A stretch of 49,978 bases of DNA. Source: Welwitschia mirabilis (taxonomy: Eukaryota). The translations under genes and the position numbers were made by a program. Shown in pieces: positions 1 through 49,914 of the stretch. The notes beneath the pieces are model-generated. The model worked only from the letters and a program-made list of their open reading frames with translations, made no database searches and was not told the DNA's origin. The stretch spans positions 5,293,456-5,343,433 of the forward strand of contig JBOZIK010000001.1 of the NCBI GenBank assembly GCA_051453625.1, written 5' to 3'. Position 1 is the stretch's first letter, and each line of letters begins with the position of its first letter.

Positions 1-514
1 TCCCTAAGCTGGATCCTTCCTTTGTTCATTGTTTCTTCTTTGGAGGGAGTGAAGGACCAACTTCTTCTGAAAGGATGTTCATCTTTTTGAGAGAATTTAA
101 CCCAAAAGGTTTGGAATCTTAAGAAGCTCTTCATCCTTTCGAATAGCAAAATCATGATTTTCTAAGATAGCTGTAATCAATCGCCCAAGGCAAGCTACTA
201 TGTCCAGCAGGTATAAACTGACTCATATAGGACATAATAAATTTACACAAGTTTATACGAACACCTGTGCCAAGACAAAGCAAAATGTATGCACATATTG
301 GAGACACCTCATCCTTGTGACCAAGCTTAGGTACAAGATTATGAGTAGAAATTTGAAATAGCACTCTGTAGAAAGAAGTCAGTCTGTTTGTGGGCAAATT
401 CGCATGCCAAGGAAAAGAAGTCACACAAAGTTCTGATGTTAAGACATCCAAAGAAACTGCTTCCTTTGAAGAGCTGTGCCTGCTTCCTGTGGTTTTTCCC
501 AAAAGGGTTTCCAT
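1..514 (-). pseudogene. Fragment of Sirevirus env-like (ORF after pol) gene
   Basis: ORF 152-514 (STHNLVPKLGHKDEVSPICAYILLCLGTGVRINLCKFIMSYMSQF...SSLPW) is clearly homologous to the post-pol ORF at 14991-15300 (HNIVPKLGHKDEVSLACAYIMYCIGQGVRFNLCKFILTYMSQF...ASLPF). Confidence 0.85.
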
Positions 515-755
515 GTAAATCTATGTGTGTTATTCTCGTGCTTGCTGTTTCAGTTTTTTTAGTATTGTTTTACAATAAAGATTCGTAACATTTACTGGCA
601 TTGTTTCCCTTGATTGTGACATGATTTATTATCTTCACACCCTTTAAAAGCTTAAGGAGATCAGTAAAGGATGAGTTGCATTATCTAGGATTTTGAAAAT
701 ACTGTGATTGATTTTCAGTTGAGATGATTTTCTGACAGAATTTGACAACTTTCAG

Positions 756-839
756 GTGATAATTTGAAGCAGCCTCTGCAGAGACCTAAAAGTAAAGCTT
801 CAAGCGAGGATCCAGCAGGCGTTGAGGAGGGTCATTATG
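756..839 (+). CDS. Repeated exon 1 of MEB-like gene (84 nt, phase 1-1): (G)DNLKQPLQRPKSKASSEDPAGVEEGHY
   Basis: ttcAG acceptor at 754-755, GTaggt donor at 840, length a multiple of 3, no stop, ctgac branch-point-like motif at 732-736. Confidence 0.8.
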
Positions 840-1240
840 GTAGGTCAGAATTGTTTGTTCTCTAGGGAAATAGCTACGGCTTGTAGGTGCCTGAAACACA
901 GAAATCCACAAAAAAGGAAGCGATTTTCAAAATGAGTTCTGGGATATGAAATGTTTTTACATAACGTGTTGAAAATGGGCAATGAACATAGAGGGCTATG
1001 TTGCTTTCAAAATTTTCACTCTCAGTGTTGATGTCTACTTCAATTATTTTTACATTGTCATTCTTCTAATATTTGTAATGGCATTGTTTTATTGTATTGT
1101 AACATGATTATATTTCTTCATGTCCCCTTTAAAAGTTGTAAGGAGATTAGTAAAAGATGAGCTGCATCATATGTAATTCTGAAAACAGTGTCATTGATTT
1201 TCAGGTGACATGATTACTGACAGATTTTGACAACTGTCAG

Positions 1241-1330
1241 GTGATAATTTGAAGCAACCTCATCTGGGACCTAAAGCTGAAGCTTCAGGAAAGGATCCAA
1301 CAGAAGATGACTTTGTGGGTCATAATTATG
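1241..1330 (+). CDS. Repeated exon 2 (90 nt, phase 1-1): (G)DNLKQPHLGPKAEASGKDPTEDDFVGHNY
   Basis: gtcAG acceptor at 1239-1240, GTaagc donor at 1331, open frame. Confidence 0.8.
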
Positions 1331-1736
1331 GTAAGCATGCATTCTTTGTTCTCAAGGGATATAGCTATAGACCACAAGTTTCTGAAGCACAGAAAATCTT
1401 CAGACTAAGGAAATGATTTTCCAAACAAGTTTTGGGATGTGAAGTGATGTAACAAAACATGCTGAAAATGTACAATAAACATGCAAAACTATATTGCTTT
1501 CAAGATTTCTGCCACTAAAGTGTTGATTCTTGCACCAGTTAATTTTATCTTGTCATTTTTTAAATATTTGTAATGATACTGTTTGAATAGATGGTGGTGT
1601 GATTTTATATCTTCATCTACCCTTGAAAAGCTTAAGGAGATCAGTAAAGGATGAGTTGCATCATGTGTGATTTTGAAAACAACATGATTGATTTTTGGGT
1701 GATATCATTTACTGAAAGATGTTTGACAACTTTCAG

Positions 1737-1826
1737 GTTATAATTTGAAGCGACGTCTGCAGGGACCTAAAACTGAAGCTTCAGTAGAGGATCCAACAGG
1801 AAGTGATTTTGAGGGTTATTCTCAAG
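1737..1826 (+). CDS. Repeated exon 3 (90 nt, phase 1-1): (G)YNLKRRLQGPKTEASVEDPTGSDFEGYSQ
   Basis: ttcAG acceptor at 1735-1736, GTaggt donor at 1827, open frame. Confidence 0.8.
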
Positions 1827-2219
1827 GTAGGTCAGAATGGTTAGTTCTTTAAGGAAATAGCTACAGACCACAAGTTCCTGAGACACAGAATCTACAAGCA
1901 AGGAAATTATTCTCCAAATGAGTTTTGGGAAGTGTTTCTATGAAATATGCTTAAAATGTGCAAGGAACAGAAAATGCTGTGTTGCTTTCAAAATTTTCAC
2001 TTTTAGAGAATTGATTTTTATGTCAATTATTGTTATCTTATCATTGTTTAATATATGTAGTGGCAATATTGTAATGTATTGTGGCACGATATTATATCTT
2101 CATGTATCCTTTACATGCTTAAGTAGATCATTAAAGGATGAGTTGCATCATCTGTAATTTCGAAAACTGTCATTCATTTTCAGATGATATGATTACTAAC
2201 AGATTTTGACAACTTTTAG

Positions 2220-2309
2220 GTGATAACTTGAGGCGACCCATGCTGGAATCTAGTACTGAAGCTTCAGGAGGGGACCTAACAAGAGATGATATTGTGGTTC
2301 ATGCTCATG
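2220..2309 (+). CDS. Repeated exon 4 (90 nt, phase 1-1): (G)DNLRRPMLESSTEASGGDLTRDDIVVHAH
   Basis: tttAG acceptor at 2218-2219, GTacgt donor at 2310, open frame. Confidence 0.8.
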
Positions 2310-2704
2310 GTACGTCAGAATTGTTAGTTCTCAAGCAAAATAGCTACACTGCAATTTTGTGAAAAATAGAAATCTTTGAAGGAAATGGTTTTCCAAACAA
2401 GCTTTTGGAGGTGAACTGTTTTTATGAAACATGCTGAAAATGTCTGATAAACATACAAAACTATATGCTTTCCAAATTTCCACTGTTAAAGTTTTGATTC
2501 TTATACCAATTATTTTTATTTTGTGATCTTCTTTATATTTATAATGGCATTGTTTTAACATATTGTGGCATGATGTTACATCTTCATGTACCCTTTAAAA
2601 ACTTAAGGAGCACAATAAAAGATGAGTTGCGTTATGTGTGATTTTGGAAAGAGTTATTGATTTTCAGGTGATATAATTTACTCATAGATTTTGTCAATTT
2701 TCAG

Positions 2705-2794
2705 TTGATAATTTGAAGCGACCTCTGCTGGGATCCAAAACTGAAGCTTCAGATGGGGATCCAAAAGGAGATGATTTCGAGGGTCATGGTTATG
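2705..2794 (+). CDS. Repeated exon 5 (90 nt, phase 1-1): (V)DNLKRPLLGSKTEASDGDPKGDDFEGHGY
   Basis: ttcAG acceptor at 2703-2704, GTaggt donor at 2795, open frame. Confidence 0.8.
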
Positions 2795-3386
2795 GTAGGT
2801 CAGAATTGCTAGACGTATAGGAAAATAGCTACAGTGCAAGTTTTCTAAAACACATAAATATATAAACAAAGAGATGATTTCCTAATGTGTTTTGCAATGC
2901 AGACGTTTTTACGAAAATGTTGAAAATGTGCAACAAACATACAAAACCTCTGTTTTCGAAATTTTCTCTATTATAATGTTAATTTTTATTTTTTTGTCTT
3001 GTCATTCTGTTAATGTTATTAATTGTATTGTCACATTCTTTAAATGTTAAGTTGTTTTCTTAGAATTTTGGGTTTATGAGGCAAGTTGTGGTTTCAAATA
3101 CTCAAAAGGCATGATTCTTTTTGCTAGGAAACAAGTCTGTCTTAAATGAATGTGGTGAATTACTATAATTAGAAAGCTCCATTTTATCCAAAGAACTTTT
3201 ACATATAATATTAAATTTTACAATAATAAATGAAATGCTTTAACTATGCTACTTCAATATAGTCAAATGGGACTTACATCTTTCTTTTCTTTGACTTCAT
3301 TTATATACTTTAGAAATATTTAGAATCCATTTTATTTGGATTTTGAGCAACCACCATTAATTTTGTATCATATTTGTTCTTAACAG

Positions 3387-3602
3387 AGAAAAGTCATAAT
3401 TATGTTGACAGAGGACAAGTAACTGATTTTCAACCAGTTAGTAACCTCAACACTGTTGCAAGTTATACAACTGTTGTGGGAAAAAGTCCAGAAGCAAAAA
3501 TAGAATGGAACATTCTAAAGAGCATTGTGTATGGGGGTCTGTCTATAACAATAGCTAATCTTGGGGTTGTGTCTTCGGCAGCAGGTGCAGATGCAAAAGC
3601 TA
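3387..3602 (+). CDS. MEBL: Exon of membrane protein of ER body-like protein (VIT1/CCC1 family metal transporter), start of the VIT domain
   Basis: aacAG acceptor at 3385-3386, GTgagt donor at 3603, 216 nt, phase 1-1 and so in frame with the repeated exons. Encodes EWNILKSIVYGGLSITIANLGVVSSAAGADAKA, matching the (L/W)xILKSIVYGGL...LGVVSSAA signature of plant MEB1/MEB2/MEBL proteins. Confidence 0.85.
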
Positions 3603-3984
3603 GTGAGTTCTTCTAAGGCTATAATGTTAATATTCTATTCTATTCTATTCTATTTTTGCACTATGAATGTAAAGCTTTGCTACACAATATTTCACTGCAA
3701 TTTGAATGTAGGAGTTACTGTAATGAACCGCTTTTAGAAGCAAACATTTTCTTAGGGAATTAACTTAGATAATATATATCAATGATTACTTCAAATTTTT
3801 AACAAATCGCATATTAGTTTTCACATGCTCGAAAGTACTGATTCACCTATTTGCTAAGGTGAAAAAAAATATATTTCTAGTTTTTGTACAAAACAGACAT
3901 TGCTTCAGTGATTAATGGTACTTTTGTGAAAACTCAATGTGCGATAGTCTTTGATGTTTTTGCAGACCACATCTGGAAGATCTA

Positions 3985-4619
3985 GGAGAAAATACAAAAC
4001 CACCTATACTTCACATGTGTGACAATCCAAGTGCTATAAGGCTAATCAGAAATCAATTATTNNNNNNNNNNCCCAATACATAAAGGATTCCTGGAACCAA
4101 AATACATGGATTTGGAAGAACAGACTGCGGATGGACTAACCAAAACACTTTCAAAAGAAACATTCCTTAAGCTCATAAACACAGTTCAACTTGTACCAAA
4201 ACACTTGACCTGTGATGGAACTATAAGAAAAAAAGAAGATGAAGTTGTTCTATTGAGAGAGTGTTTTAGGCAAAACTACTGCAGCAAGATTTGAATGAAA
4301 CCAGAAGAGGAAGTCCCACCTATGGATCGTGTATAAGACAAGCACTGTTTTCACATGCAATACATACAATTAGGAACCAGCTATAATAGTAAATCTTGTA
4401 GTTAAATAACTAAGCTATTTATCAAGAGTCACATCTTTAATAATTGTGATCCTTTATGTTAGGTAATGGGGTAAAATAATTTCGTTTTGTATTTATTCAT
4501 TCACTCATTAATTTATCATTTTAGTATTGTATTAAAATATTTTACATCCTTTAGAATTATTACCCTTTTCTATTTTGTAGTTTCCATTTCTTCTTCAAAT
4601 TGTCGTAGCTGTCCTATCA
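3985..4619 (+). mobile_element. Copia 3' fragment: RNase H end plus possible short LTR (~4262-4619)
   Basis: Translates to ...CDNPSAIRLIRN (4017-4056) and EEQTADGLTKTLSKETF (4115-4165), which are Copia RNase H motifs. A purine run followed by TG occurs near 4255-4263. LTR limits are tentative. Confidence 0.55.
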
Positions 4620-4639
4620 AGAACTGAAACCAAAGAGAT

Positions 4640-7450
4640 CCTTTGAAAAACTAAAATCAACACTGATATGCATAGCTTACCCCTTCTAAAAGTAATCCCT
4701 CTTGTACATGATAATGCTCATGGATTTTACAGAAGTCCTAGGGTTGTTTGGTCCCCTCCCAATCTCATTGAAATTCTAGCCTTCAGCATATAAGAAACAC
4801 AGTGCTCGAAACCATTAGTCTCACTGAGAGTCCTCATGTAGAATCTGCTGCATGGTGCATTGACTACTTGATTCATTGGTTGCTGTCTTCTTATGCATGC
4901 TAACAAAGTTATACTCCTGTAATTTCTCTTCTATTTGGCATTCAATTATCTTGCTGATTTAAATGTTGTAGGGCCTTGTGACCAGCAAATAAAATGAATT
5001 CCTTATTTATTAACTGGTGTCTCCATCGTTTTAACGTCTGCAAAAATTGCAAAGAGTTTGTTCTCATAAGTGGATTGCTTGCATTTGGCTTCATTAAACT
5101 TTCCACTAAAGAAGGAAATTGGGTTTCCTTCTTGACTATGTACTCATATGGCATCTCCACATGGATCACACTCAAAGTTGAAATGAAAGATCAAAGCTAG
5201 GCAAATCTAACACTAGTCTTCTTTCTATTTTCTCTTTTAGTAATCTAAAACTCTAATCAGCTTGCTTTTTTCATACAAATACCTTGTCATTCTTGAGTAA
5301 ATCGAACATGTGAGCAACAATCTTTGAGAAATCCTTGATGAACCTTTTGTAGAGTGATTCAAATCCATGGAGCATTCTAACCTACCCAGCGTTTTGAGTT
5401 GTGGGCCAATTGATTAGTACTTCTTCCACTTTGTTAGCATCCATTTTTGCTCCTTCCTTGAACACACCCATTCCCAAAAAACACTAGTTCACTTTTTCCA
5501 AAGTTGCATTTCCTTTTATTTGCACACATTTTTTCCCTTAATTTCTTCAATGTCTGTCTTAAATGCTCTAGGTATGCTACCTAAGATTTGCTGATTACAA
5601 GAGTGTCATTAAAATAAACTACAACAAACTTACCAGCTACTCTCTTAGTATTTCATTCATCATTCTCATGCAACTGTTGGGTACATTTGTTAAACCAAAG
5701 GGCATCACCCTCCATTCATAGAGACCTTTTGGCATTTTGAATGTTGTCTTCCACTCATCTCCCCTTAATCTGATTTAATAGGACGTAGATTTTAAGTAAA
5801 TTTTTTTACTGAAAATGAATGAACCACTAAGGCTATTTAATATGTTGTCCATTTGGGCATATGGCATTGGTATCTAATATGTATCTTATAATGGTTCTAG
5901 CATCCACACATATCCTTAACTTGGGGTTGTCTATCTCTGGGGCAAGAATAATTGGAATGGACCAAAGTATGAGGCTCGACTAAATTACATCATTCTCTTG
6001 GATTTGTCTTGCTATCTTTGCTCTCTTTGGTCCCTATATGATAAGGTAGTTTGTTTGGTAATAAAGCTCCGGGAATAAGAACAATCTGATGGGAAATGGC
6101 TTTTTGAGGATGAAGCCCTAAATGTAATGTTATCATCAAGATAATACTAAAACTATCAACCAAAGAAGTTACTTAGCTCGAACATTCTTCTTTCTTTATT
6201 CCTCACTTGTACTAGGCTACATAAGAACTGTCTTAACAAGTAATAAGTTTTGACCTTTTCTGTGGCTAGTATGTCCTACACTGATAGCAATTTGAAAGTT
6301 TTAGTTTTATGGGAAATGAGGCACATATTATTCTTCCTATTCTGTTGGCAATTTGTGTCTTAAGTCTTCCCAACAAAGCATTACAAGCATCCATTCTTTA
6401 AAATGTCAGATAAAATAACATCTTTATTGCCATGCATTTTAAGTTTCACAAGGCATTATTCATTCACGTTAGGATGAGCTTGTTCATTGATCCATGACAC
6501 TATGTATGGATTTGGATTAGGGTTGGTCTTCAACATTAATATTCGATGGTACTAGAAACAACGTTTTCATTGTTACCATTCTAAATTACTACATTGAAGA
6601 CCTTGTTGAGGTCATCTAAACTCTTTATGATGTTTCTAACTATATGGTTCTCTAATGTTGGATCTTCTTATATGGGTCATTAATGAGTACCTCCTTCAAA
6701 AGAAACTTTGCTGGTCCTTTTCATTCAACATTTGCCCTCATTGGTGATTGGGTTTCCATCAACTCCTCTTTGGTGTGAGGTTTCATCCTGACCATAATAC
6801 ATGGTCTTTCTATTTTAAAAACAATCAAACATTTCATGATTCCAACCTCAACATTGATAACATTTGACGTCTTTGTGCCCTCTATCTTCCTCTCTTCCTC
6901 CATAGGCCCTCAACATTTGTCACATTTCAAAGTTTGTAATTGATCACCTTCTGAAGGGAAACCTTTCGTTGCATATCCCTTGCGAAAAAGCTTTTTTCTC
7001 CTCAATATGCTCTTCTATCCTTAAGGCAAATTGTAAGTCTTATCCAAGCTTTTTGGTAATGTTAGTCCCAATTTGTGTTGTATGTTCGTTCTTAAGCCAC
7101 GCAAGAAATTTGCAAATTTTTCATTTGGGGTCCTCAAGAGTTAGCTTTCACAACACATTAAGGAATTCTTTGATGTAATCCTCGACACTTATCTTCTTGT
7201 CTCAAAGAAACGTCGAATGACCCTTAACCACTCTCTGAATTTGCCTCATTCAAATTCTCCTTCAGAAAAGGACACCATCACCATAGGTTGCATGAGAGCA
7301 TTCCTAATTCTTTTTATACAATTCTTTTTATACAAATCAACTATGTACATATTTCCTCTTTAACACCATACTGTGTAGTGTTGTGAAATATAGGCTCTTC
7401 CTCATCCTATTCTTACACATCTAAACAATTTGGAATTTGCAATTTCTATT
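4640..7450 (-). mobile_element. Degenerate Ty3/Gypsy gag-pol, CRM (centromeric chromovirus)-like
   Basis: Minus-strand remnants: [28 protein letters not shown] (RT, ~5685-5765), PNPYIVSWI...DACNALLGR (protease region, ~6305-6520), EFILFAGHKALQHL (RNase H), SVEDYIKEF (gag). Many stops and frameshifts. Confidence 0.8.
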
Positions 7451-9758
7451 TTGTGGTCACTTTTTTCTTTAGGTTGGCCATAGTACTCTTTTTTATGAGG
7501 CATTATCTTTTCCTAAATTTGGCTCTGTTATTAAGTAATTTAAGCAACAACAACTTTTGTTGTAATTGGTATCATTGTGAACCCTTAGTTTTGTTCTTCC
7601 ACTGCTCTTGGTCTTTTTTCCCGAAATTAGGAAAATGAAAACATCTATTCATCTATATGAAAAATTTATGTTTATTTGATGAAGAGGAGTTTGAAAAAAG
7701 CTTCACCAATGATTTAAACTAATAACAGTGATAGTTTGACGAATTTGGAAAAGCTGAAAGCCAAGAATCATTCACCAAGAATCTATCAATTTTTCAAAAA
7801 TTAAATTCTCTATAGTAAAGTTTTTCCAAGGAATCTCCATCAACTCACAACAATCTAAACCTTTTTTGAAAATTGTTATTTTTGTTGAAGACCAAAAATT
7901 CCCAGTAATTTTTCATATTCATGAAGAACAGCATTAAAACCACCACTAATCAAAAGGGAGTTTGAAAATCTTGAAATTTTTTAATGTAAGAAGTCTAAAA
8001 ATCTTTCATTTTACCAAGAGGTGAAGAACAATAGACAGTAACCAAAATTAATGAAACATTTTCTACATGAAATCTGGAAGCAATACTAAACTAATTATAC
8101 CAAACAGTGTTACTATGTTCATAGTGAGTTCGCTGGAAGTCACTAGGTTTTATGTTAGAGGGCCTTTGCAAGTCTAAAGGCACAAACTTGCCAACATGAG
8201 TCCAAGGGTTGCAAATGCCTGTCCAGAAAACAAAAAAACACATCATTAAAATTAAAAAAAAAAAGAAAAAACAGTGGACCAAAATCATAAATGAAAAATC
8301 CAATCGTTTAGTCTTTGCTTGTACACATAAAAGCATCAAACCGTGTTTAGCACTGAGCTGTGACTCCATTTTCACAATAGGAAAGGTTTAAAAAAGAGGC
8401 AATAGTGAAATTATATCTGTTGGCTAAGCAAGTTGCTATTTCTGTCTAGTTTTATTGTAATTTGGTTAATTTTTCAATGAAACTAGCTTTGATTTTTCCT
8501 ACATTGAAATGAGATAAAATTTAATACCTATGATCATCATTTTATAGTAAAATATTGATTTATTGATATTTTGTTAACATTTTTGCTGAGAAACAGTTGC
8601 CTTTTTTTCTTTTTTAGTGTGGAGATGATCTTAACACTTGGCAATAAAGTGATAGCAGTAAAGTGATAAATCATCATTTTATTCTTTTATTCCCTTTCCA
8701 TTAGGTGTTCTCAATAGGAAAGACATTTCAATTAGTATAAAATAGGAAAAATAGTTGACTGATTCAAGAAATGTCATTTCCCAATATCTCCTTTTATTCA
8801 TGTTAGACTTAGTTTTTGTTTTTTCACAGTCATATAGTGAAACTTTGCAAACTTGATCTTCCAACAGGTAGAGTAGCAATACTTTAAGAACTCAAGTTCT
8901 CAAAGTAATGCCACCAACAAGAAAAACTGCAAAAGCCTCAAAGTGAAGGGAAACAATCTATTCAAGTTCAAGGATTAAAAGGAAAACTTAATCAATGAGA
9001 ATAAGGTATCTGAATACATTTGTTAATTCATAAGAAGACGATTTGAGGAGATATGCAAAATTCAAATAATGCACCATTGAATCAAAAGGTCACTCTATGT
9101 ATTTCTCTTTTGTGGTGGTCATATGCATCGAGGTATTTATAGGTTTAACTTTCATCTTGTATGGGTCACTTAAAGAGAGATGATCCCTTGCCGCCATGTC
9201 CTTAACAGAGTCGGACAACCAACATAATTTTAATTAGAAGAATTTTATAGGAAAAAGAAGAAAAAAGAGGGACAATTTGACACAAGTAGAGGGCAAGGCA
9301 TGTGGTAATACCTTTGCTTGTGAGTTGGCATAGGAGGTTAAGGACTTGACACAAACCAAGAAGTAGCAGGAAAGCCAAGCTATGATTTTTCCTCATGAAT
9401 AGAAAGGTAACTTTCTATGATTTCATTCAACATTTCAACATATTTTAAGCCTATATCTTGGATTGGTAAGTGACTTGTAATTCTCAAGTTCTCATCTTCT
9501 TTTACATTATAGAAATTTAGTTCCTTTAGTAAAATTTTCAATCTCAATTTGTCGCAGGTCATGGAGCCCAACAAGGTAGTGAGGGGATGAGATGAATTTG
9601 TGATTAAGCAGACCAAAAGGTAGCAAATGCCTTCTATCAATGCGACATCCATTTCAACGTGACAATAACTCTACATTGTAAGGTCATGATGCAAGTTATT
9701 TCTACCACAAAAGGTAACTATAACGGTCCTACATATTAGAAACTTCATGGCAAGTTAG

Positions 9759-10837: not shown

Positions 10838-13800
10838 ATGGCATCATCAAATGTCACCGAAGGCTAATCAATCTCTAGACCTCCATTCTTCTTAGGAAAC
10901 AACTATGCGCATTGGAAGTCATAGATGACGATAATTCTTACATCTTTGGATGTGGACATTTGGGAGATGATTATAAAGAAACACCAACCTCCACTATGGT
11001 AGATGCAAATGGAGCTATCTTACTCAAGCCTCGAGCCAACTGGGATTCAGATGACAAGAAGCAAGCTAGGTTGAATGCTTAGGCCATGAACGCTATAATA
11101 TGTGCTCTCGCTCCGGAAGACTACAACCATGTTGTCCAATGCACTATGGCACGAGAAATGTGGGAGACTCTAAAAATAGATCATGAAGGGACAAACATAG
11201 TCAAGAACACCAAGCTGTAATTACTGACCACCAAATTCGAGAATATCAAGATGGAAGAGTCAGAAACAGTTGCTTAATACACTACCAAGATCACCAACAT
11301 TACAGATACCATATGGGGACTTGGTGAGAAGATTCCAGAAAATAGAATAGTGCACAAAATCTTGAGGAGCCTAACAGAGAAGTTTAGGCCAAAGGTGACA
11401 GCCATTGAGGAGAGAAAAGACATTGACACAATAAAAGTAGAAGAACTGAAAGGATCGCTTATGGCCTATGAAGCCACCCTCTTGCTTGAAAATGAAGCTC
11501 CCAAGCAAAGAAGCATAGCTCTTAAGGCCAACGAAGAAATCAAAAAGGACTCATCATCCGAGGAAGCTAAAGATGAGGATCTACTTTACTCACTCAAAAC
11601 TTGAAAAAATTTCTAAGGAGAAAGAAAGAAGGAAGACCACCTAAGAGATCTTCAAACTGCAGAAATGAAAAAGGTACGCAATTTTCTAATTCAATTTAGT
11701 GTTTTGAATGTAAAGCGTTTGGTCATGTAGCTTCAGAATACGCCAATAAACAAAAGGAGAGAATCTCAAAAGGAAAGGAGAAAAAGGCTCTAAAAGCAAC
11801 ATGGGATGATTCTGATAGTGAGAAGGACAACTTCAGTGATGACGAAGAGGTATTAAACTTTGGACTTTAATCTATCATTGAGAATGATGATTCAAACTTT
11901 GGATTCATAGCTTCCGAAGAAGATCACAAAAATGATTCGGTATGTTTAGAAAATGATTACAAAGAATGTTTTGATTTGGAATATGATGAACTAATTGATG
12001 CTTATGAAAATCTATACAATGTTAGTATTAGCTTAGGAAAGAAAAATATTCTCTTAAAGCAACAATCCAATGAACTCGAAAGTAAATTGATTGAAGCTAA
12101 TAGTGGAATAGAAGAATTTTCCAAAGCTTTGTAGGATGCAAAAAGGATTGTTGAACGTTTAGTGCAAGAAAAGGAAATCCTGAACAAGCTCTTGGGAAGT
12201 GGAAGATCCCCCTTTGATAGATCTGGAATTGGAAGCTCACCAGGTATGTCTACTTGTTTTCAGAATTTCCATTCCAGCATAAAATTTCAATCCCTTGGAA
12301 AAGCTAGCCTAAGATGTTTTTCCTGTATTAAAATTGGTCATGTTCAATTCTTTTGTCCTTATAGAAAGTCCCTTTATTTTGGTTTCAATTGCGATTTTCA
12401 CTTTGAGAACAAGTCTTGTTTGACTAGTCAGTCTAGGGAAAAGAAAAACAAGATGAGATGGGTTAAGAAAAATACTATTACCACCTTCTTTGTTCACGAG
12501 CATTTAAGGTTCAAGACAAAACTAAGTGCTATCTGGATAGTGGTTGCTCTCGCCACATGGCTGGAAACAAGAGCTTGTTAAGTTCTTTCCAAGNNNNNNN
12601 NNNNNNNNNNNNNNNNNNNNNNNNNNNNNNNNNNNNNNNNNNNNNNNNNNNNNNNNNNNNNNNNNNNNNNNNNNNNNNNNNNNNNNNNNNNNNTATCAAA
12701 TGAATGTTAAAAGCGCTTTCTTGAATGGATATATTAATGAAGAAGTCTATGTTACTTAACCTCCCAGTTTTACAAATCCAAAATTTCCAAACCATGTATA
12801 CAAGCTTAACAAAGATCTCTATGGACTCAAACAAGCTCTCAGGGCATGGTTTGACAGACTAAATGTGTTTCTTATTTCAAAAGGATTTTCTAAAGAAAAT
12901 GCAAATCCAACTCTTTTTATTAAACGTGACAAGGAGGACATTTTGATAGTTCAAATTTATGTAGATGACATTGTTTTTGGTGCTACAAAATCAAGTCTTG
13001 CAGACAACTTCTCTGAAATGATGCATAAAGAATTTGAAATGAGTCTAGTAGGAGAACTAAACTTCTTTTTGGGTCTTCAGATCAAGCAAACCAAATCTGG
13101 AATTTTCATAAGCCGATCCAAATATGCTAGAGACATGTTAATGAAATATGGTATGATGGATTCCAAGGATATTAAGACTCCCTCTTCCACAAATGTGAAA
13201 ATATCAAAAGATAAAGGAGGAAAAGGAGTTAATCAAAAGCTGTATAGAGGTATGATTGGAAGTCTTTTATGCATGACAACAAGTAGGCCTGATGTAGCTT
13301 ATAGTGTAGGGGTGTGTGCCAGGTATCAATCAGATTCCAGAGAATCTCACCTGATTTGTGTTAAGAGAATTTTCCAATACATTAAACACACAGAAAATCA
13401 TGGTTTACTATACTCTTAAGATACTTCTCTTAATCTGGTAGGATACCATGATGTTGATTGGGCTGGTTGCATAGATGACAGGAAGAGCACGAGTGGAGCA
13501 TGTTTCTATCGTGGAAATTTTTTCGTTTCCTGGTTAAGTAAGAAATAGAGTACAACTTCTTTATCAACCACCGAAGCCAAGTATATCATAGCATGTGCCT
13601 GTTGTGCCCAATTACTTTGGATGAAACAAATGTTGATAGATTTTGGTTTAAAGAATGAAAGTAAAGAATGTTTTGTTACAACACCTGTGCCACAAATATA
13701 ACAAAAAACCCCGTTCAACACTCTCGTACCAAACACATAGATATAAGACATCACTTTGTATGAGATTAAGTTCAAAATCATTTGCAGATATTATGATGAA

Positions 13801-25664: not shown

Positions 25665-27691
25665 GGTGGTTGATAGAAGATGGCATAGGAAGTGGAAGAT
25701 AGAAAGTTAGTGGGGTACAATGAAAAATACTGGTGAATGGTTGAAAATTAGAGATTGAGATGTTTAAAACACCATAGAGAAGGCATCCATGGACATTTGC
25801 ATTTGCGTGATAGAGCAAACATCAGGGTTTGAGATAGTGGATGGCCAAGTTGTAAAACCCAGACTTTTGCAAAAAGAGGAATAATAGACTTCTGGGTTTT
25901 AAATACGGGACATCTGGGATCAAGATTATGCAAAGTTTAGCTTAGAAAAAGGCAAAATTCTAGTACAAGCTAATCTAGACGAGAGAATTTGACATGACTA
26001 GGNNNNNNNNNNNNNNNNNNNNNNNNNNNNNNNNNNNNNNNNNNNNNNNNNNNNNNNNNNNNNNNNNNNNNNNNNNNNNNNNNNNNNNNNNNNNNNNNNN
26101 NNNNNNNNNNNNNNNNNNNNNNNNNNNNNNNNNNNNNNNNNNNNNNNNNNNNNNNNNNNNNNNNNNNNNNNNNNNNNNNNNNNNNNNNNNNNNNNNNNNN
26201 NNNNNNNNNNNNNNNNNNNNNNNNNNNNNNNNNNNNNNNNNNNNNNNNNNNNNNNNNNNNNNNNNNNNNNNNNNNNNNNNNNNNNNNNNNNNNNNNNNNN
26301 NNNNNNNNNNNNNNNNNNNNNNNNNNNNNNNNNNNNNNNNNNNNNNNNNNNNNNNNNNNNNNNNNNNNNNNNNNNNNNNNNNNNNNNNNNNNNNNNNNNN
26401 NNNNNNNNNNNNNNNNNNNNNNNNNNNNNNNNNNNNNNNNNNNNNNNNNNNNNNNNNNNNNNNNNNNNNNNNNNNNNNNNNNNNNNNNNNNNNNNNNNNN
26501 NNNNNNNNNNNNNNNNNNNNNNNNNNNNNNNNNNNNNNNNNNNNNNNNNNNNNNNNNNNNNNNNNNNNNNNNNNNNNNNNNNNNNNNNNNNNNNNNNNNN
26601 NNNNNNNNNNNNNNNNNNNNNNNNNNNNNNNNNNNNNNNNNNNNNNNNNNNNNNNNNNNNNNNNNNNNNNNNNNNNNNNNNNNNNNNNNNNNNNNNNNNN
26701 NNNNNNNNNNNNNNNNNNNNNNNNNNNNNNNNNNNNNNNNNNNNNNNNNNNNNNNNNNNNNNNNNNNNNNNNNNNNNNNNNNNNNNNNNNNNNNNNNNNN
26801 NNNNNNNNNNNNNNNNNNNNNNNNNNNNNNNNNNNNNNNNNNNNNNNNNNNNNNNNNNNNNNNGTCAAGTATTCAAGTTGTTTAGGATTCTTGACTTATG
26901 AGATCAATTTCGATAGTGACAGAGGTAGGTTCAATTAAAAAAAATTGAAATTTTTTAAGCTATATGGGGACAGCCCCTATGCCTAGATTCTTTTTATGAA
27001 AGACAAATCTCTCTTTGCTTAACTATTTGTCATGATGTTAGTGATTTGATCATTCATTGAAATATACTCTAATCAAATCACTTGACACTGAAGTTGTTCA
27101 CACATAAAATGATGTCTAATGTCAATATGTTTAGTTTTGGAGTGTTGGACTAGATTTTTGGTGATGTTAAGAGCACTAGCGTTATCACAATAGAGTTTGA
27201 TTGTGCCCATTTTAGCATCAAAATCTACCATCATTTGTTTCATCCATAACAGTTGTGAACAACAAGAACTTACAACAGCATACTCAGGTTCAACTATAGA
27301 CAAGGATGTGGTTCTATGCTTCTTGCATAGCCAAGAAACTAGGCAATTACCCATATAAAAGCAAGCTTCACTAGTACTCTTTTTGTCATCTACACATCTA
27401 GCACAATCTATCTCACTATAACTCACAAGATCAAGCATGGTGTCATTAGAACACCACAACCCATAGTTCTACATATGCTTAAGATATTGTAGAATTCTCT
27501 TAACACATACCAAATGCAATTCTCTAGGATTTGATTGATATCTTGCACAAATCCCGATAGTAAGGATGATTGCAATTACATATAACTGACTACCGATTAG
27601 ACCTTTATATACTTTTTGATCTACCTTTTTGCCTAACTCATCTTTACTGATTTTAGGATTGGTTAAAGAAGTCTTGGAATCCTTGGAATTA

Positions 27692-28985
27692 TCCATTTAA
27701 TACTTATTCAATACTTCTTGGGATGTATTTGGATTGATTAATGAGTATTCCATCATCAAGTTGTTTAATTTGAAGTCCTAAAAAGAAATTTAGCTCACCA
27801 ACTCAACTCATTTTGAATTCCTTTTGCATAAGTTCGACAACATTCTGAGCAAGAAAATTCTTTGTTGATCCAAATAGTATGTTATCTACGTTAATTTGAA
27901 CAATTAGAATATCTTTGTTTTCATGTCTCATAAACAAGGTTATATCTATATTTCCCTTAGAAAATCCATTTGAAACTAAAAATGAATTTAATCTATCAAA
28001 CCAAACTCTTGGATCTTGTCTTAGTCCAGACAAAGCTTGTTCAATTTGTAAACATGATCAAAAAATTTGGGATCAACAAAATCATGGTGTTGAGCAACAT
28101 ATACTTCTTCATTGACATAGCCATTAAGAATACCATTTTTAATATCCATCTGATATAATCTAATATGTTCCTTCTTGCTGACTCTAATCTTGAGCTACCA
28201 ATCTAGCCTTGTTCTAAATTATATTGTGATTTTTGTCCTTCTTATTGTTAAAGGTCCATTTTGTTCCTGTGACATATTTCCCTTCAAGAACTGAAACTAA
28301 ATTCCAAACTTTGTTGTATTTAAGTTAATTCATACTTGGCATTAGCCATTTAATACTTAGTCAACACTTCTTGGATGTAATTGGATTGATTAATGAATAT
28401 TCCATCTTCAAGTTGTTTAATCTAAAGTCCTAAAAAGAAATTTAGCTCACCAACTCAACTCATTTTAAATTCCTTTTGCATAAGTTTGCAACATTCTGAG
28501 TAAGAGAATTCCATGTTGATCCAAATAGTATGTCATCTACATTAATTTGAACAATTAGAATATCTTGATTTTCAAGTCTTATAAACAAGGTTAGATCTAC
28601 ATTTCCCTTAGAAAATCCATTTGAAACTAAAAATGAATTTAATCTTTCAAACCAAACCCTTGGAGCTTGTTTTAGACCATAAAAATCTTGTTCAATTTGT
28701 AAACATGATAAAAAAATTTGGGATCAACAAAACCATGGTGTTGAACAATGTATACTTCTTCATTGACATAGCCATTAAGAATAGCACTCTTAATATCCAT
28801 CTGATATAATCTAATCTGTTTCTTCTTGCTGACTCACCTTGAACTACCAATCTAGCCTTGTTCTAAATCACATTGTGATTTTTGTCCTCCTTATTGTTAA
28901 ACATCCATTTTGTTCCTATGACATATTTCCCTTCAGGAACTGGAACTAAATTCCAAACTTTGTTGCATTTAAATTAATTCAGTTC
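27692..28985 (-). repeat. ~650-bp tandem duplication within reverse transcriptase
   Basis: 27692-28345 and 28346-28985 both begin ccatttaatactta and align throughout; compare the ORFs at 27970 and 28621 (MKLKMNLI...). Confidence 0.9.
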
Positions 28986-31900
28986 TTGTTGCACAGCAAA
29001 CAACGAAGCTTCATCATATTTGGCTTCTTGAAATCTCTTGAGTTCTAGAGAAAATAGGAAACATAAAAAATTGTGGCTCTGTGTGTTTTTCACTTCTCGT
29101 AGTTGTCCCTTGTTTTGGATTACTAAAGATTTTTTTGAGGGTGATATCTCTTTGTCCTAAAGAGAAGAGATGAGCTTTTTTTTGTGTTATCTACTCATTT
29201 GATTTTGATATTGATGGTTCATCATGAATTTTGGAAGTAGAGATTTCAACAATGTTATCAGTATTTCTATTTATGGGCAAACCATCTTGTTTTGAGCCTT
29301 CTACTTTAACATGGACAGATCCTTCTACTCTGCATGTTGTTTTATTGTAAGCTCTATATAATTTGCTGGTTCTTGAGTAGCCCCAAAATATCCCATCATC
29401 TGTGTTGGATTCAAACTTGCCTGTTGGTCCTTTATTTTCAAGGATTAAACACTTACCAAAAAAAACTTTGAAATAACTTACAATAGGTTTCTTCCCATTC
29501 CATAATTCATATGAAGTTTTACTGGTCCTTAGTTGTAGAAAGACTCTGTTTCTTATGTAAAAAGCAGTATTTACAGTTTTAGCCTAAAAATGTTGTCGTA
29601 TTGCTTGTTCATCGAGCAATGTTCTTGTCATTTCAATGAGGACCTTATTTTTTCGTTCAGCTACACCATTTTGTTGAGGTGTTCTTGGAGCAAAGAATTG
29701 ATGAAAAATTCCATTTGAATCACAATATTGCTAAATTTGTCATTCATATTCTTCTCTCTATCAGATCGAATCATTTTACTGGTGTACCCCTTTTCATTTT
29801 GGATTCTTTTGCAGATTTTGACAAACACCTCAAAGGCTTCATCCTTATTTGAAAGAAATGAAACGGTATTGGGAAAAGTCATCAACCATAATTAGGAAAT
29901 ACTTTTACGCCAATGCTTCTAGTTTATGTTGGTCCCACCAAATCCAGGTGAATTAAATCCAACGATCCAATAGAAGTTGTAACCCATGTGAATTAAATGT
30001 AACGGTCTAACAAAAGATGTATCCTCCTTACATTTAAAGGTTGAATAGGGAAGCTTCCCTTTGAGACATGAATCACATACTTTAGCTTGAGACACATTGA
30101 GCTTGAGAACTCTCCTCTCTGGTAGAGATATTTTTTAAGCATNNNNNNNNNNNNNNNNNNNNNNNNNNNNNNNNNNNNNNNNNNNNNNNNNNNNNNNNNN
30201 NNNNNNNNNNNNNNNNNNNNNNNNNNNNNNNNNNNNNNNNNNNNNNNNNNNNNNNNNNNNNNNNNNNNNNNNNNNNNNNNNNNNNNNNNNNNNNNNNNNN
30301 NNNNNNNNNNNNNNNNNNNNNNNNNNNNNNNNNNNNNNNNNNNNNNNNNNNNNNNNNNNNNNNNNNNNNNNNNNNNNNNNNNNNNNNNNNNNNNNNNNNN
30401 NNNNNNNNNNNNNNNNNNNNNNNNNNNNNNNNNNNNNNNNNNNNNNNNNNNNNNNNNNNNNNNNNNNNNNNNNNNNNNNNNNNNNNNNNNNNNNNNNNNN
30501 NNNNNNNNNNNNNNNNNNNNNNNNNNNNNNNNNNNNNNNNNNNNNNNNNNNNNNNNNNNNNNNNNNNNNNNNNNNNNNNNNNNNNNNNNNNNNNNNNNNN
30601 NNNNNNNNNNNNNNNNNNNNNNNNNNNNNNNNNNCTTACCTTTGAGACATGAATCACATACTTTAGCTTGAGACACATTGAATTTGGGAACTTTCTTACT
30701 TACTCTTTGGTAGAAATATTTTTTAAGTCTTTGAGATTCTTGTAGCCTACTCTTCTACGTCAGAGTTTGACGTCTTCTTCATTAGCCATGAAGCATTTTT
30801 CTCCTAGTCGTTTATCACTTCTTAGCACATACATACACTTAGATCTACAACTAGCAAGAATAATAGTATCGGTGGCAGTGCTTCAAACAACACACTTATC
30901 TTGGTGAAAAGATACCATATTTCCTTTATTACAAATTTGCGATATACTAAGTAGGTTATGCGTCAGCCCATCCACAAGGTAAACATAATTTATGGTTGGA
31001 TTGTGTTTGGTGGCTATAGTGGACCTTTTACCAATTATATGCCCTTTACTGTTATCACCAATCATTACTTTGCCACTATCATATTCTTGAAATGAGGTGA
31101 GTAAATTTGTATCTGTAGTCATGTGTCTAGAACAACCACTATCAAGATAGCACTTTGTTCTCTCTTGAGCCATAAAAGCAGCATATGCAAATAAGTATAT
31201 AGTAGTTTTCTTCCTAACCCATTGAAAGTTGCCTTTTTTATTGTGTTAATTGAAGGGCTTTCTAATAAATCTCACATCATCATTGAATCCGAAATAAAAT
31301 GACTTTTTGTGGGGACAAGAAAATTGAATGTGATCATACTTGTTGCAATAGTGCCATCTTAAGCTCACTTTACCAGATGAGCGATATTAAATACTAGGAG
31401 CAAATTTTTGAAGAGGTGGTGCCATACTATTAGAGCTACCTATTCTAGATTCATCATAAGGATTTCGTCCTATACCCAATAGTTCATTCAAATTATCTCT
31501 TCCCTAAGTTAAACAATTTGCAATAAATTTTGCGTCTCGAAGTTCTCTTGTTAAAGAATCTATTTTGTTGTTTGCTTCTCTTAATATGCTTTCTAAGTAA
31601 TCTACAAATTTCTTGGACATAACATTTTTCTTGCCTAGATCTATGCTAAGCATATACAATTTTTCATAAGTGTCCAATAATTCATTGTATTTAAAAATTA
31701 AAATCTAAATCATCACAATCTTCAAAACTGTTTTCAGAAGATATATGTTGATTTTCGAAGGAAGGACTACTAGCGGTAAAACAACATTGAGTTGGGGTAC
31801 TTATCTCATTTGCTACAACAAGAAGCTCAAAGCTCAGGAATCCTTCATCATCACTTGAGCTAGCATTGCCTACTTTTAAGTCATTGTCCTAAGTTGGTTT

Positions 31901-47884: not shown

Positions 47885-49914
47885 GAGGAAGAGGCAATAA
47901 TAACGGGCTCAACAAGGAAAGATTTGCCTATCTAAGGAAGAACTTAGGTATAAGGGCTTACCCCTCCTCACAATAATTTTTAAAATAATTCAAATTGCTC
48001 TTAACTGTGTTATTCTTCGATCTAAGTGGCTTGCGAAATTTCTGGATAGTATCTGAACTATGCATTTTTATCTCACTCGGATGTCCCGGTTAATTATCCA
48101 GATGTCCTTAAGGTTTTTACAACCTGGATGTTTGCATCATGTCTACCGGACGTCCTCTCTTTAATCTGAAAGTGATTTTTCTGGGTTTCACAACCCAGAT
48201 GTTCCGTCAATTTTTTCTGGACATCCACTCTTTAATGTGGACGTAACCCTAGATGAACAACCTCTACCTGTCTCTCTCTCTATATATATTCACCCAATGT
48301 TCTTTTTTTTGTTATTTTTCAAATCTTCAGTCCTCTGGCGCACACACTCTCTCTTTCTTCCTCAATCATCATGGGTAGAAGTAAGTTGGCTGCTTCAAGA
48401 AAAGGCAAGGAACCTGAATCAGAAGAAGAATGGTTTATTACTCCAGAACATAAAAAATCTTGGTTTGGAGGCTTTTCTAAGAGGCCAATTGCTCCAAAGA
48501 TAGACTTCGAGTCTTTTAGACATGAAGTCAGAATTGTCCATAAGTTTGAAGAACAAGGGCAGTTGTATGCTTTAGATGCAGATATTCATGCTTCAACAAG
48601 AATGATACGTTTATTTTACTACAATGCCATTTTTAACCCTTTAGATTGGATTTTTACAATAAAAGTATATAGTAGAAGGGTAGTTGTGGATTTTGAAGCC
48701 ATCTCTTTAGTCACTAGTTATCCAAATGAGGGCTTCTTCAAACAAATTACTTCAGTTAGTTCATTACAAGAAGTTGTCTCCAAAGATATTTTGACTTAAA
48801 AACTTTGTGGCTCTCTATCAATTATAGTGATGGTCTCTATCAATTTTGAAATATCGAAATCTCTTGTCTTTCCTTAAAGCATATTGTCAAAATCTTTTAC
48901 TCTAAAAAGTCTGCAAAGGCCCTTTTTTGTTAAGCTAAACGTGGAAGTACCAAGTAATCTTAGTAGCACAAATTCAGGGGTAGTAACCAGCTCTCCCATC
49001 TTCGAAGTCCCAAAAAAGGTTGTCATCATTGAAAAGGGGGAGATTGTTGAAGGTTTATGTTTCAATGATGATCAATACATTCTATAGNNNNNNNNNNNNN
49101 NNNNNNNNNNNNNNNNNNNNNNNNNNNNNNNNNNNNNNNNNNNNNNNNNNNNNNNNNNNNNNNNNNNNNNNNNNNNNNNNNNNNNNNNNNNNNNNNNNNN
49201 NNNNNNNNNNNNNNNNNNNNNNNNNNNNNNNNNNNNNNNNNNNNNNNNNNNNNNNNNNNNNNNNNNNNNNNNNNNNNNNNNNNNNNNNNNNNNNNNNNNN
49301 NNNNNNNNNNNNNNNNNNNNNNNNNNNNNNNNNNNNNNNNNNNNNNNNNNNNNNNNNNNNNNNNNNNNNNNNNNNNNNNNNNNNNNNNNNNNNNNNNNNN
49401 NNNNNNNNNNNNNNNNNNNNNNNNNNNNNNNNNNNNNNNNNNNNNNNNNNNNNNNNNNNNNNNNNNNNNNNNNNNNAAAAAAGGTTGTAATCATTGAAAA
49501 GGGGGAGATTGTTGAAGGTTTATGTTTCAATGATGATCAATACATTCTATAGCAAATTTAGAAAGTGACGTAGACTAAATTGCATCATCAAAGTAAGCCA
49601 AAAAAGGAGATATCTAGAGTTTGTGCTAACCAGGACGTCTGGATATAAAACTGGGACTTCTGCCCTTGTATGCGGCTTATTGTACAAGAACGTCTGGATT
49701 CGAAACTGTGACATCCGACCCTACAAGGCCTTCGTCTAGAGCATATCAGAAAGTGGGATTTGTATTTTTTGCATGCTGAACCTTCATATCACATCCCTTT
49801 GGTGTTTAGATTCAACACACAGAGACCAAATGAAGTTGAATGGCAAGCGACAGTCAGTGAGGTCACCAAGGACTTGGAAAAGCATATCCACAGAGTCACA
49901 ATGAAAGATAGAGC
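47885..49914 (+). mobile_element. Sirevirus copy 3, 3' part (RNase H end, truncated env-like ORF, PPT, partial 3' LTR)
   Basis: KERFAYLRKNLGI (~47913-47952), GGATGTCC motif cluster and ORF 48371-48799. PPT AAAAGGGGGAGA followed by TGTTGAAGG at 49045 (repeated at 49510 across the gap). Confidence 0.85.
48371..48799 (+). pseudogene. Env-like ORF N-terminal half of Sirevirus copy 3
   Basis: MGRSKLAASRKGKEPESEEEWF...FSKRPIAP...LFYYN is homologous to 14496-14990. Confidence 0.85.

Follow-up and report, generated by a model that had tools for sequence, protein, structure and literature searches.

We analysed a window of 49,978 nt of Welwitschia mirabilis DNA (GCA_051453625.1, JBOZIK010000001.1:5,293,456-5,343,433, forward strand; all coordinates below are positions in this window), which holds five tandem copies of a small symmetric exon followed by the exon that starts the membrane domain of an MEB-like gene of the VIT family. 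The five copies are very probably spliced serially into the mRNA of this gene, to which they would add a drifting acidic tail under a constraint on frame only. We found that frame and splice signals are held in the copies, whereas their residues are not. The array and its exons are:

590-3020, +: tandem array of five diverged ~485-bp units, each made of an intron part, one exon and a part of the next intron
756-839, +: repeat exon 1, 84 nt, phase 1-1, DNLKQPLQRPKSKASSEDPAGVEEGHY; open frame, AG/GT borders; joint 839/1241
1241-1330, +: repeat exon 2, 90 nt, phase 1-1; open frame, AG/GT borders; joints 839/1241 and 1330/2220
1737-1826, +: repeat exon 3, 90 nt, phase 1-1; joint 1826/2220; included in some transcripts, skipped in one contig
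2220-2309, +: repeat exon 4, 90 nt, phase 1-1; open frame; joints 1826/2220 and 2309/2705
2705-2794, +: repeat exon 5, 90 nt, phase 1-1; open frame; joints 2309/2705 and 2794/3387
3387-3602, +: exon 6, 216 nt, phase 1-1, start of the VIT/MEB membrane domain (EWNILKSIVYGGL...GVVSSAAGADAKA)

Structure and history of the exon array

The five units lie head to tail (family D2 of our repeat search) with start-to-start spacings of 485, 496, 483 and 485 nt, and their mean column identity in a MAFFT alignment is 80% over the full unit length. Tandem Repeats Finder, run with default settings on positions 1-8000, missed the array and reported only a 14-nt repeat. In every unit the homology spans the exon together with flanking intron, as is characteristic of tandem exon duplication, and all five copies likewise combine a symmetric phase, a length divisible by three and preserved splice sites. 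Each repeat exon is preceded by a pyrimidine-rich tract and AG, is followed by GT(A/C)(A/G)G, and is open in a single frame, with two spare bases before the first full codon and one after the last (phase 1-1); both remaining frames contain stops in 5/5. This frame continues into 3387-3602, which holds KSIVYGGL and encodes ...EWNILKSIVYGGLSITIANLGVVSSAAGADAKA, so that 148 codons are open over the five repeat exons and 71 in exon 6. The sole change in exon length is a 6-nt gap in copy 1. An earlier sequence-only reading of this DNA had proposed the array with these exon coordinates, AG/GT borders, phase 1-1 and a frame shared with the KSIVYGGL exon, and was borne out on all these points by the repeat search, the alignment and the frame check.

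Concerning the history of the array, Jukes-Cantor distances between whole units range from 0.26 to 0.34. A FastTree phylogeny of the whole units pairs unit 1 with unit 3 (support 0.83) and unit 2 with unit 4 (support 0.88), and local repeat families agree with this (e.g. 639-739 against 1619-1719 at 84%). Because the units pair in this manner, the tree suggests that a two-unit block was duplicated within the history of the array. The upstream exon present in the reads ends in a different peptide, according to our own reading of a loose read end, and the array therefore comprises five copies in this assembly. We propose that a segment of ~485 bp, consisting of one 90-nt phase 1-1 exon and intron halves, would have been tandemly duplicated within an MEB-like gene up to five copies, that the two-unit block duplication was probably part of this growth, and that unequal crossing-over or slippage would have driven it.

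Two other origins were considered and rejected. The array is not an assembly artefact, since divergence between its units amounts to 26-34% and the RNA contigs agree with each distinct exon to within 0-1 letters. It also does not derive from a transposon, given that domains of transposable elements are absent from 590-3020 and that a Transposase_32-like fragment sits upstream of it, at 155-520 on the minus strand.

An intronic stretch ~80-110 nt upstream of each exon (650-690 in unit 1; alignment columns 61-105) has the consensus TAAGGAGATCAGTAAAGGATGAGTTGCATCAT. Its identity between units is 0.82, equal to or above that of the exon (0.61-0.80), and it could be a splicing element or a product of chance.

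The gene, its transcripts and the encoded tail

Among the collection proteins of 126-2000 residues, exon 6 finds a single one, P0001 (680 aa, PF01988), and none of them carries this gene's own exon 6. This protein scores 28.1 bits against Pfam VIT1 (PF01988), exactly the gathering score, and exon 6 alone gives no Pfam match. When P0001 is searched against the window by tblastn, it matches exon 6 only (68% over 37 aa, E 1.2e-9), and no further VIT exon is found. P0001 has 252 relatives, and all our comparisons use the 120 that were listed; these come from many flowering plants and are mostly named 'membrane protein of ER body-like protein' by their sources. By blastp, exon 6 is 75-81% identical to MEB-like proteins over the conserved 31-32 residues and at most 56% identical over 55-58 residues, and because of the latter value we recognize no close orthologue among the 120 homologues. 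The family motif W.ILK.IVYGGL.ESITSLG.VSSAAG is represented only in part in the window, by ILKSIVYGGL and GVVSSAAGADA. In reads, the letters behind 3602 encode TTVIVLGLAN, which matches the next segment of P0001 (...TLNIFILGLAN).

Part of the text of PMC11922923 ascribes to the MEB subfamily a long, uncharacterised N-terminal region that varies more than the membrane domain, and reports that the EgVIT1 residues Asp43 and Glu72 lack conservation in MEBs. The gene studied here has such a long variable N-terminus ahead of its membrane domain, with at least 148 plus ~40 residues in the window and an upstream exon beyond it. On the evidence of one helix and the read-through letters, it is best called MEB-like (VIT family).

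Evidence on splicing comes from runs carrying the same species label that were mapped to 1-4061, namely the contig sets X1 and X2 and the raw RNA-seq runs X4 and X7. Four GT..AG joints link the exons: 839/1241 (X1, X2, 3 reads of X4 and 1 read of X7), 1826/2220 (X1, 1 read of X4 and 3 reads of X7), 2309/2705 (X1, X2 and 3 reads of X4) and 2794/3387 (X1, X2 and 2 reads of X4). The sequence-only reading had predicted these four and a fifth, 1330/1737, which was not listed. All five repeat exons have coverage from one or more contigs or reads and are thus included in mature RNA. An X1 contig carries exons 3-4-5 side by side; exon 3 is skipped in frame in a 508-nt contig of X2, which holds exons 1-2-4-5-6 and has the joint 1330/2220. 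Because neighbouring repeat exons occur together in such contigs, in groups of three or four, they are not mutually exclusive, and the earlier suggestion of mutually exclusive exon use is contradicted.

The transcripts also reach beyond the exons in the window. A 777-nt contig extends 531 nt past exon 6, and a 30-mer taken from the reads after 3602 has 0 matches in the window at <=3 mismatches. On the other side, read ends before 754 continue into an upstream exon, and a 30-mer from before the array has no match in the window either. With spliced joints on the one hand and a 68% match over 37 residues between exon 6 and a PF01988-bearing protein on the other, the proposal of genuine exons in a VIT/MEB-like gene, transcribed and frame-preserving, holds. 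For annotation, this means that the gene model should contain the five small exons, together with the one of 216 nt, as real exons. As the copies keep their AG, their GT and a length divisible by three, the spliceosome would include them serially, giving the protein 148 extra residues.

Two further types of splice feature lie next to the repeat exons:

1205-1240, +: 36-nt alternative-acceptor extension before exon 2, containing an in-frame TGA; joint 839/1205
708-755, 1193-1240, 2172-2219 and 2657-2704, +: acceptor look-alike regions, used at least once, before exon 2, with a premature stop as the result

Four of the five units have, 36-37 nt upstream of the true acceptor, a sequence that resembles the acceptor and exon start ('ttttcag', then g/a/t-tga.at); unit 3 has lost it. 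An X1 contig of 81 nt has joint 839/1205, at an acceptor 36 nt upstream of exon 2, and runs into a stop after 8 residues. Reads and genome also differ at two positions, in exon 3 (1752 G>A in X7, 3/3 reads) and in exon 4 (2247 A>G in X2 and in 3/3 reads of X7), probably through allelic or strain variation.

The peptide encoded by the array is a repeat of ~30 residues with the consensus DNLKRPLLGPKTEAS..DPTGDDFEGH.YG and five invariant positions. Joined, the five exons encode 148 aa with 0 stops, a net acidic segment rich in Gly, Asp, Ser, Glu, Lys and Pro (29 D+E against 18 K+R, with 6 His, 11 Pro, 19 Gly and 0 Cys). It ends ~40 residues before the first membrane helix, and 69% of its residues are of disorder-favouring types according to a list of our own. 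With such a composition, the segment most likely forms a disordered, flexible tail or spacer.

A profile built from the five units has no credible match among 1.84 billion representative proteins. Five matches at E <=1e-3 were rejected as unrelated repeat-rich proteins; they cover 13-19 profile positions, and by inspection none is of the VIT family. Searched with hmmsearch against the 120 MEB-like proteins, the profile reaches a best E of 2.3, the repeat being present in 0/120, and its alignment to P0001 by hhalign has a probability of 0.1. The repeat sequence thus appears unique as far as the libraries searched reach, from which close relatives of the species seem to be absent. This agrees with the sequence-only reading, which had raised the possibility of a lineage-specific repeat domain.

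Constraint on the copies and rival explanations

The mean pairwise identity between copies is 0.794 in the 165 nt upstream of the exon, 0.748 in the exon and 0.718 in the 225 nt downstream. When gaps are scored as mismatches, exon identity exceeds intron identity by a non-significant 0.036 (permutation p 0.30). Within the exon, conservation is lowest at the acidic/His end, where identity is 0.61-0.68 (alignment columns 226-270) compared with 0.74-0.80 at the start. Nei-Gojobori counts pooled over the ten pairs of copies, based on 29 codons and on paralogous copies only, give a pN of 0.273, a pS of 0.185 and a ratio of nonsynonymous to synonymous change (dN/dS) of ~1.6, or 1.77 against the majority consensus. 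Purifying selection on the residues is therefore not detectable among the copies.

Frame and splicing behave differently from the residues. The flanking introns contain 18 distinct internal indels in 390 aligned columns, 0 of which are multiples of three, against one indel (6 nt) in the 90 columns of the exons, where 4.15 frameshifting indels are expected and 0 observed (P ~0.016). All five AG and all five GT are kept despite the distances of 0.26-0.34 between units. The earlier claim that the exons are under coding constraint thus stands for frame and splice sites only and is not supported for the residues. Such a pattern is what would be expected if the copies are normally included, because any break of frame or splicing would destroy the VIT domain downstream. 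Selection on the array would then act mainly through this domain, with stops, frameshifts and splice losses removed, since these would destroy it, and residues left to drift; it would be the length and charge of the tail, not its exact sequence, that the plant tolerates or uses. From the point of view of evolution, selection on the exon array separates into two layers, of which frame and splicing are held and residues are not.

A number of points weigh against a serially spliced tail under constraint on frame. On the side of the transcripts, joint 1330/1737 is not listed in X1, X2, X4 or X7, although X1, X4 and X7 do cover exon 3, and no read or contig in the four runs spans all five repeat exons. 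Expression is low, with 26 and 10 reads placed from about a quarter of X4 and X7, respectively, and the RNA nature of X1 and X2 is only guessed, though their GT..AG joints argue for RNA. On the side of constraint, the dN/dS ratio has the narrow basis given above, and a stop-free state has a P of ~0.10 under neutral substitution, weak evidence when taken alone. Finally, the window covers the membrane domain no further than its first ~35 residues, so that an intact full-length frame is not visible, and the first helix of this domain (3540-3575, +) is unusual: GGL is followed by SITIANLG, so that the Glu and Ser of the family are replaced. Among the homologues that matched our pattern (21/120 left out), the Glu occupies the second position after GGL in 98/99 and the Ser the sixth in 99/99. 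RNA contigs agree with the genome at the SITIANLG helix. Given the loss of these two residues, the gene may be under relaxed selection as a whole, or may encode an altered transporter.

Some of these observations bear directly on the possibility that the gene is a decaying, still transcribed paralogue, in which both the repeat exons and the VIT domain drift and the open frame is a leftover. Its appeal lies in the dN/dS of ~1.6, in exons that are conserved no better than introns, in the loss of the near-invariant Glu and Ser of the first helix, in the low read counts, in the next exon missing from 46 kb of retrotransposon-filled sequence, and in the lack of a close orthologue among the proteins searched, where the best match is 55% over 58 aa. 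Decay would have to be reconciled with 0 frameshifting indels against 4.15 expected (P 0.016), with splice dinucleotides that are all kept despite 26-34% divergence between units, with 148 + 71 open codons, and with correct splicing and an in-frame continuation into the next VIT segment. We regard it as unlikely, being disfavoured by the indel test and by the correct in-frame splicing.

The skipping of exon 3 raises the question of whether the array is a regulated cassette system, in which the number of units included would depend on tissue or condition and so adjust how long or how multivalent the N-terminal tail is. The 508-nt contig of X2 lacks exon 3 and X1, X4 and X7 include it, and annotated isoforms of MEB-like proteins of Vitis, Actinidia eriantha and Macadamia differ by whole repeat units. 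Skipping is seen in this one contig only (1330/2220), of depth ~4 and from a single run, and no skipping joint passed the listing threshold in the raw reads of X4 and X7, even at a min_share of 3, at a depth too low for estimating a rate. Furthermore, the isoforms of other species are model predictions known from source names, and symmetric exons are expected to be skipped at a low level through splicing noise, which makes a regulated system quite unlikely.

It is more doubtful still that the D/E/H-rich end DDF(E/V)GH.Y makes each unit a metal- or calcium-binding module that would feed or gate the transporter, metal binding through these residues having been a suggestion of the sequence-only reading: family members transport Fe/Zn/Mn in yeast according to the parts of PMC11922923 and PMC3947992 consulted, and the acidic/His end recurs in 4/5 units, but the case is otherwise one of composition (29 acidic residues and 6 His in 148 aa), and it has against it that conservation in the exon is lowest at this putative binding end (0.61-0.68 against 0.74-0.80), that dN/dS is ~1.6 and that the motif occurs in 0/120 homologues.

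Surrounding DNA

Beyond exon 6 and upstream of the array, we identified the following features:

3603-49978, +: stretch of at least 46 kb, either intron or assembly break, with Ty1/copia fragments and N runs, in which 30-mer and tblastn searches found no next exon
11278-13416, +, and 27076-31245, -: Ty1/copia fragments (copia gag, RVT_2, Pol_BBD beta-barrel and SH3_retrovirus integrase; Pfam matches)
155-520, -: Transposase_32-like ('putative plant transposon protein') fragment, 33 bits, below the cut-off

The window contains ten N runs, and retrotransposon fragments fill the 46 kb after exon 6. Because only such fragments and N runs follow 3602, the next intron spans 46 kb or more, unless the scaffold is interrupted at this point. 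By eye, 4072-4330 (+) resembles the C-terminus of a copia polyprotein, and an open stretch of 180 codons at 48257-48796 (+) has no Pfam match. Within the Transposase_32-like fragment, 35 nt (467-501) match a 1545-nt contig of depth 27 and reads of all four runs with one mismatch. As the flanks of this match are similar and not identical, it points to a well-expressed paralogous copy elsewhere.

Repeats in other MEB-like proteins and comparison with known systems

We also looked for internal repeats in the 120 homologues by searching their 50-residue segments against the parent protein, with shuffled sequences as a control. Repeats were found in 62/120 MEB-like proteins against 0/120 shuffled ones at E 1e-3, and in 51/120 against 0/120 at E 1e-6; the homologues are not independent, as they include several isoforms or paralogues per species, the 62 representing ~30 genera by source names. 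The repeat unit varies by lineage, with 46 aa in Escallonia, 38 aa in Acer, 59 aa in Vitis, 12 aa in Malvaceae and ~50 aa in Actinidia. Source-named model isoforms differ accordingly in some lineages: isoform X5 of Vitis LOC100852895 lacks 59 aa, which is its repeat period, isoforms of Actinidia eriantha lack 61-63 aa at one of two repeat copies, and isoforms of Macadamia lack 99-100 aa over a 47-aa repeat. In a Vitis riparia MEB-like protein (P0022, residues 426-660), the 59-residue repeat includes copies of the first-helix motif (KKWGILKGIVNVGLTKSITS before the true KKWEILKSIVYGGLIESITS), so that in Vitis the duplication would have reached the start of the VIT domain.

Because about half of the MEB-like proteins carry lineage-specific repeats and isoforms differ by units, these data suggest that the 'uncharacterised, variable' N-terminus of MEB proteins is a repeat-prone module, whose length may matter more than its sequence. 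This family-wide tendency to grow repeats is a more interesting by-product of the analysis than the array itself. One may tentatively go further and imagine the MEB-like tail as a recurrent hot spot across flowering plants, where independent lineages build frame-neutral exon arrays immediately before the VIT domain and the skipping of units sets the length or valency of an acidic cytosolic tail. If so, and we offer this with the same reserve, the tail could serve partner docking or metal capture, and the Welwitschia array would be one more independent origin rather than a lone event.

With MEB1, MEB2 and MEB3 of Arabidopsis, the gene described here shares a long variable soluble N-terminus before the DUF125/VIT domain, and the motif ILKSIVYGGL...VVSSAAG of exon 6 fits the family. 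It differs from the family in the replaced Glu and Ser of the helix, and in a repeat that is present in 0/120 homologues, a set that the Arabidopsis proteins are outside of. In the literature on the MEB family (supplements excluded), we found no description of N-terminal repeats or of an exon array. The repeats of the other MEB-like proteins (Escallonia, Acer, Vitis, Malvaceae, Actinidia) occupy the same place before the VIT domain and are also tandem, diverged and different between lineages. Compared at the protein level, they are unrelated to the array in sequence and period, and the first-helix motif is contained in the Vitis unit and absent from the unit described here.

NAI2 and TSA1 also carry acidic repeats in tandem, called EFE repeats, which measure a few tens of residues each and have a core of the form acidic-Phe-acidic. 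Their resemblance to the array is compositional only, within the same cell-biological setting, and is no more than a lead, the term EFE being absent from the review text searched. NAI2 forms complexes with MEB1 and MEB2, as stated in part of the text of PMC3947992.

Clusters of mutually exclusive exons, such as those of arthropod Dscam and of ATE1 (PMC7797038), resemble the array in having arisen by tandem exon duplication and in forming series of similar exons. They differ from it in that the copies here are additive, with 3-4-5 and 1-2-4-5-6 found together in single contigs.

The closest parallel is the growth of protein repeats by tandem exon duplication, with which the array shares a unit made of exon plus intron, phase 1-1, serial splicing and a probably disordered tandem repeat as the product. 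Exon duplication was reportedly the subject of classic surveys by Letunic and by Kondrashov and Koonin. That tandem duplication of symmetric exons yields internal repeats, often within disordered regions, is described in general terms in PMC9013439 and PMC3632108. With respect to known exon duplications, the present one stands apart in concerning a plant transporter gene and in lacking detectable constraint on residues among its copies. The array exemplifies repeat growth by exon duplication cleanly, but this is a well-described phenomenon, of which the array is an ordinary, if new, instance.

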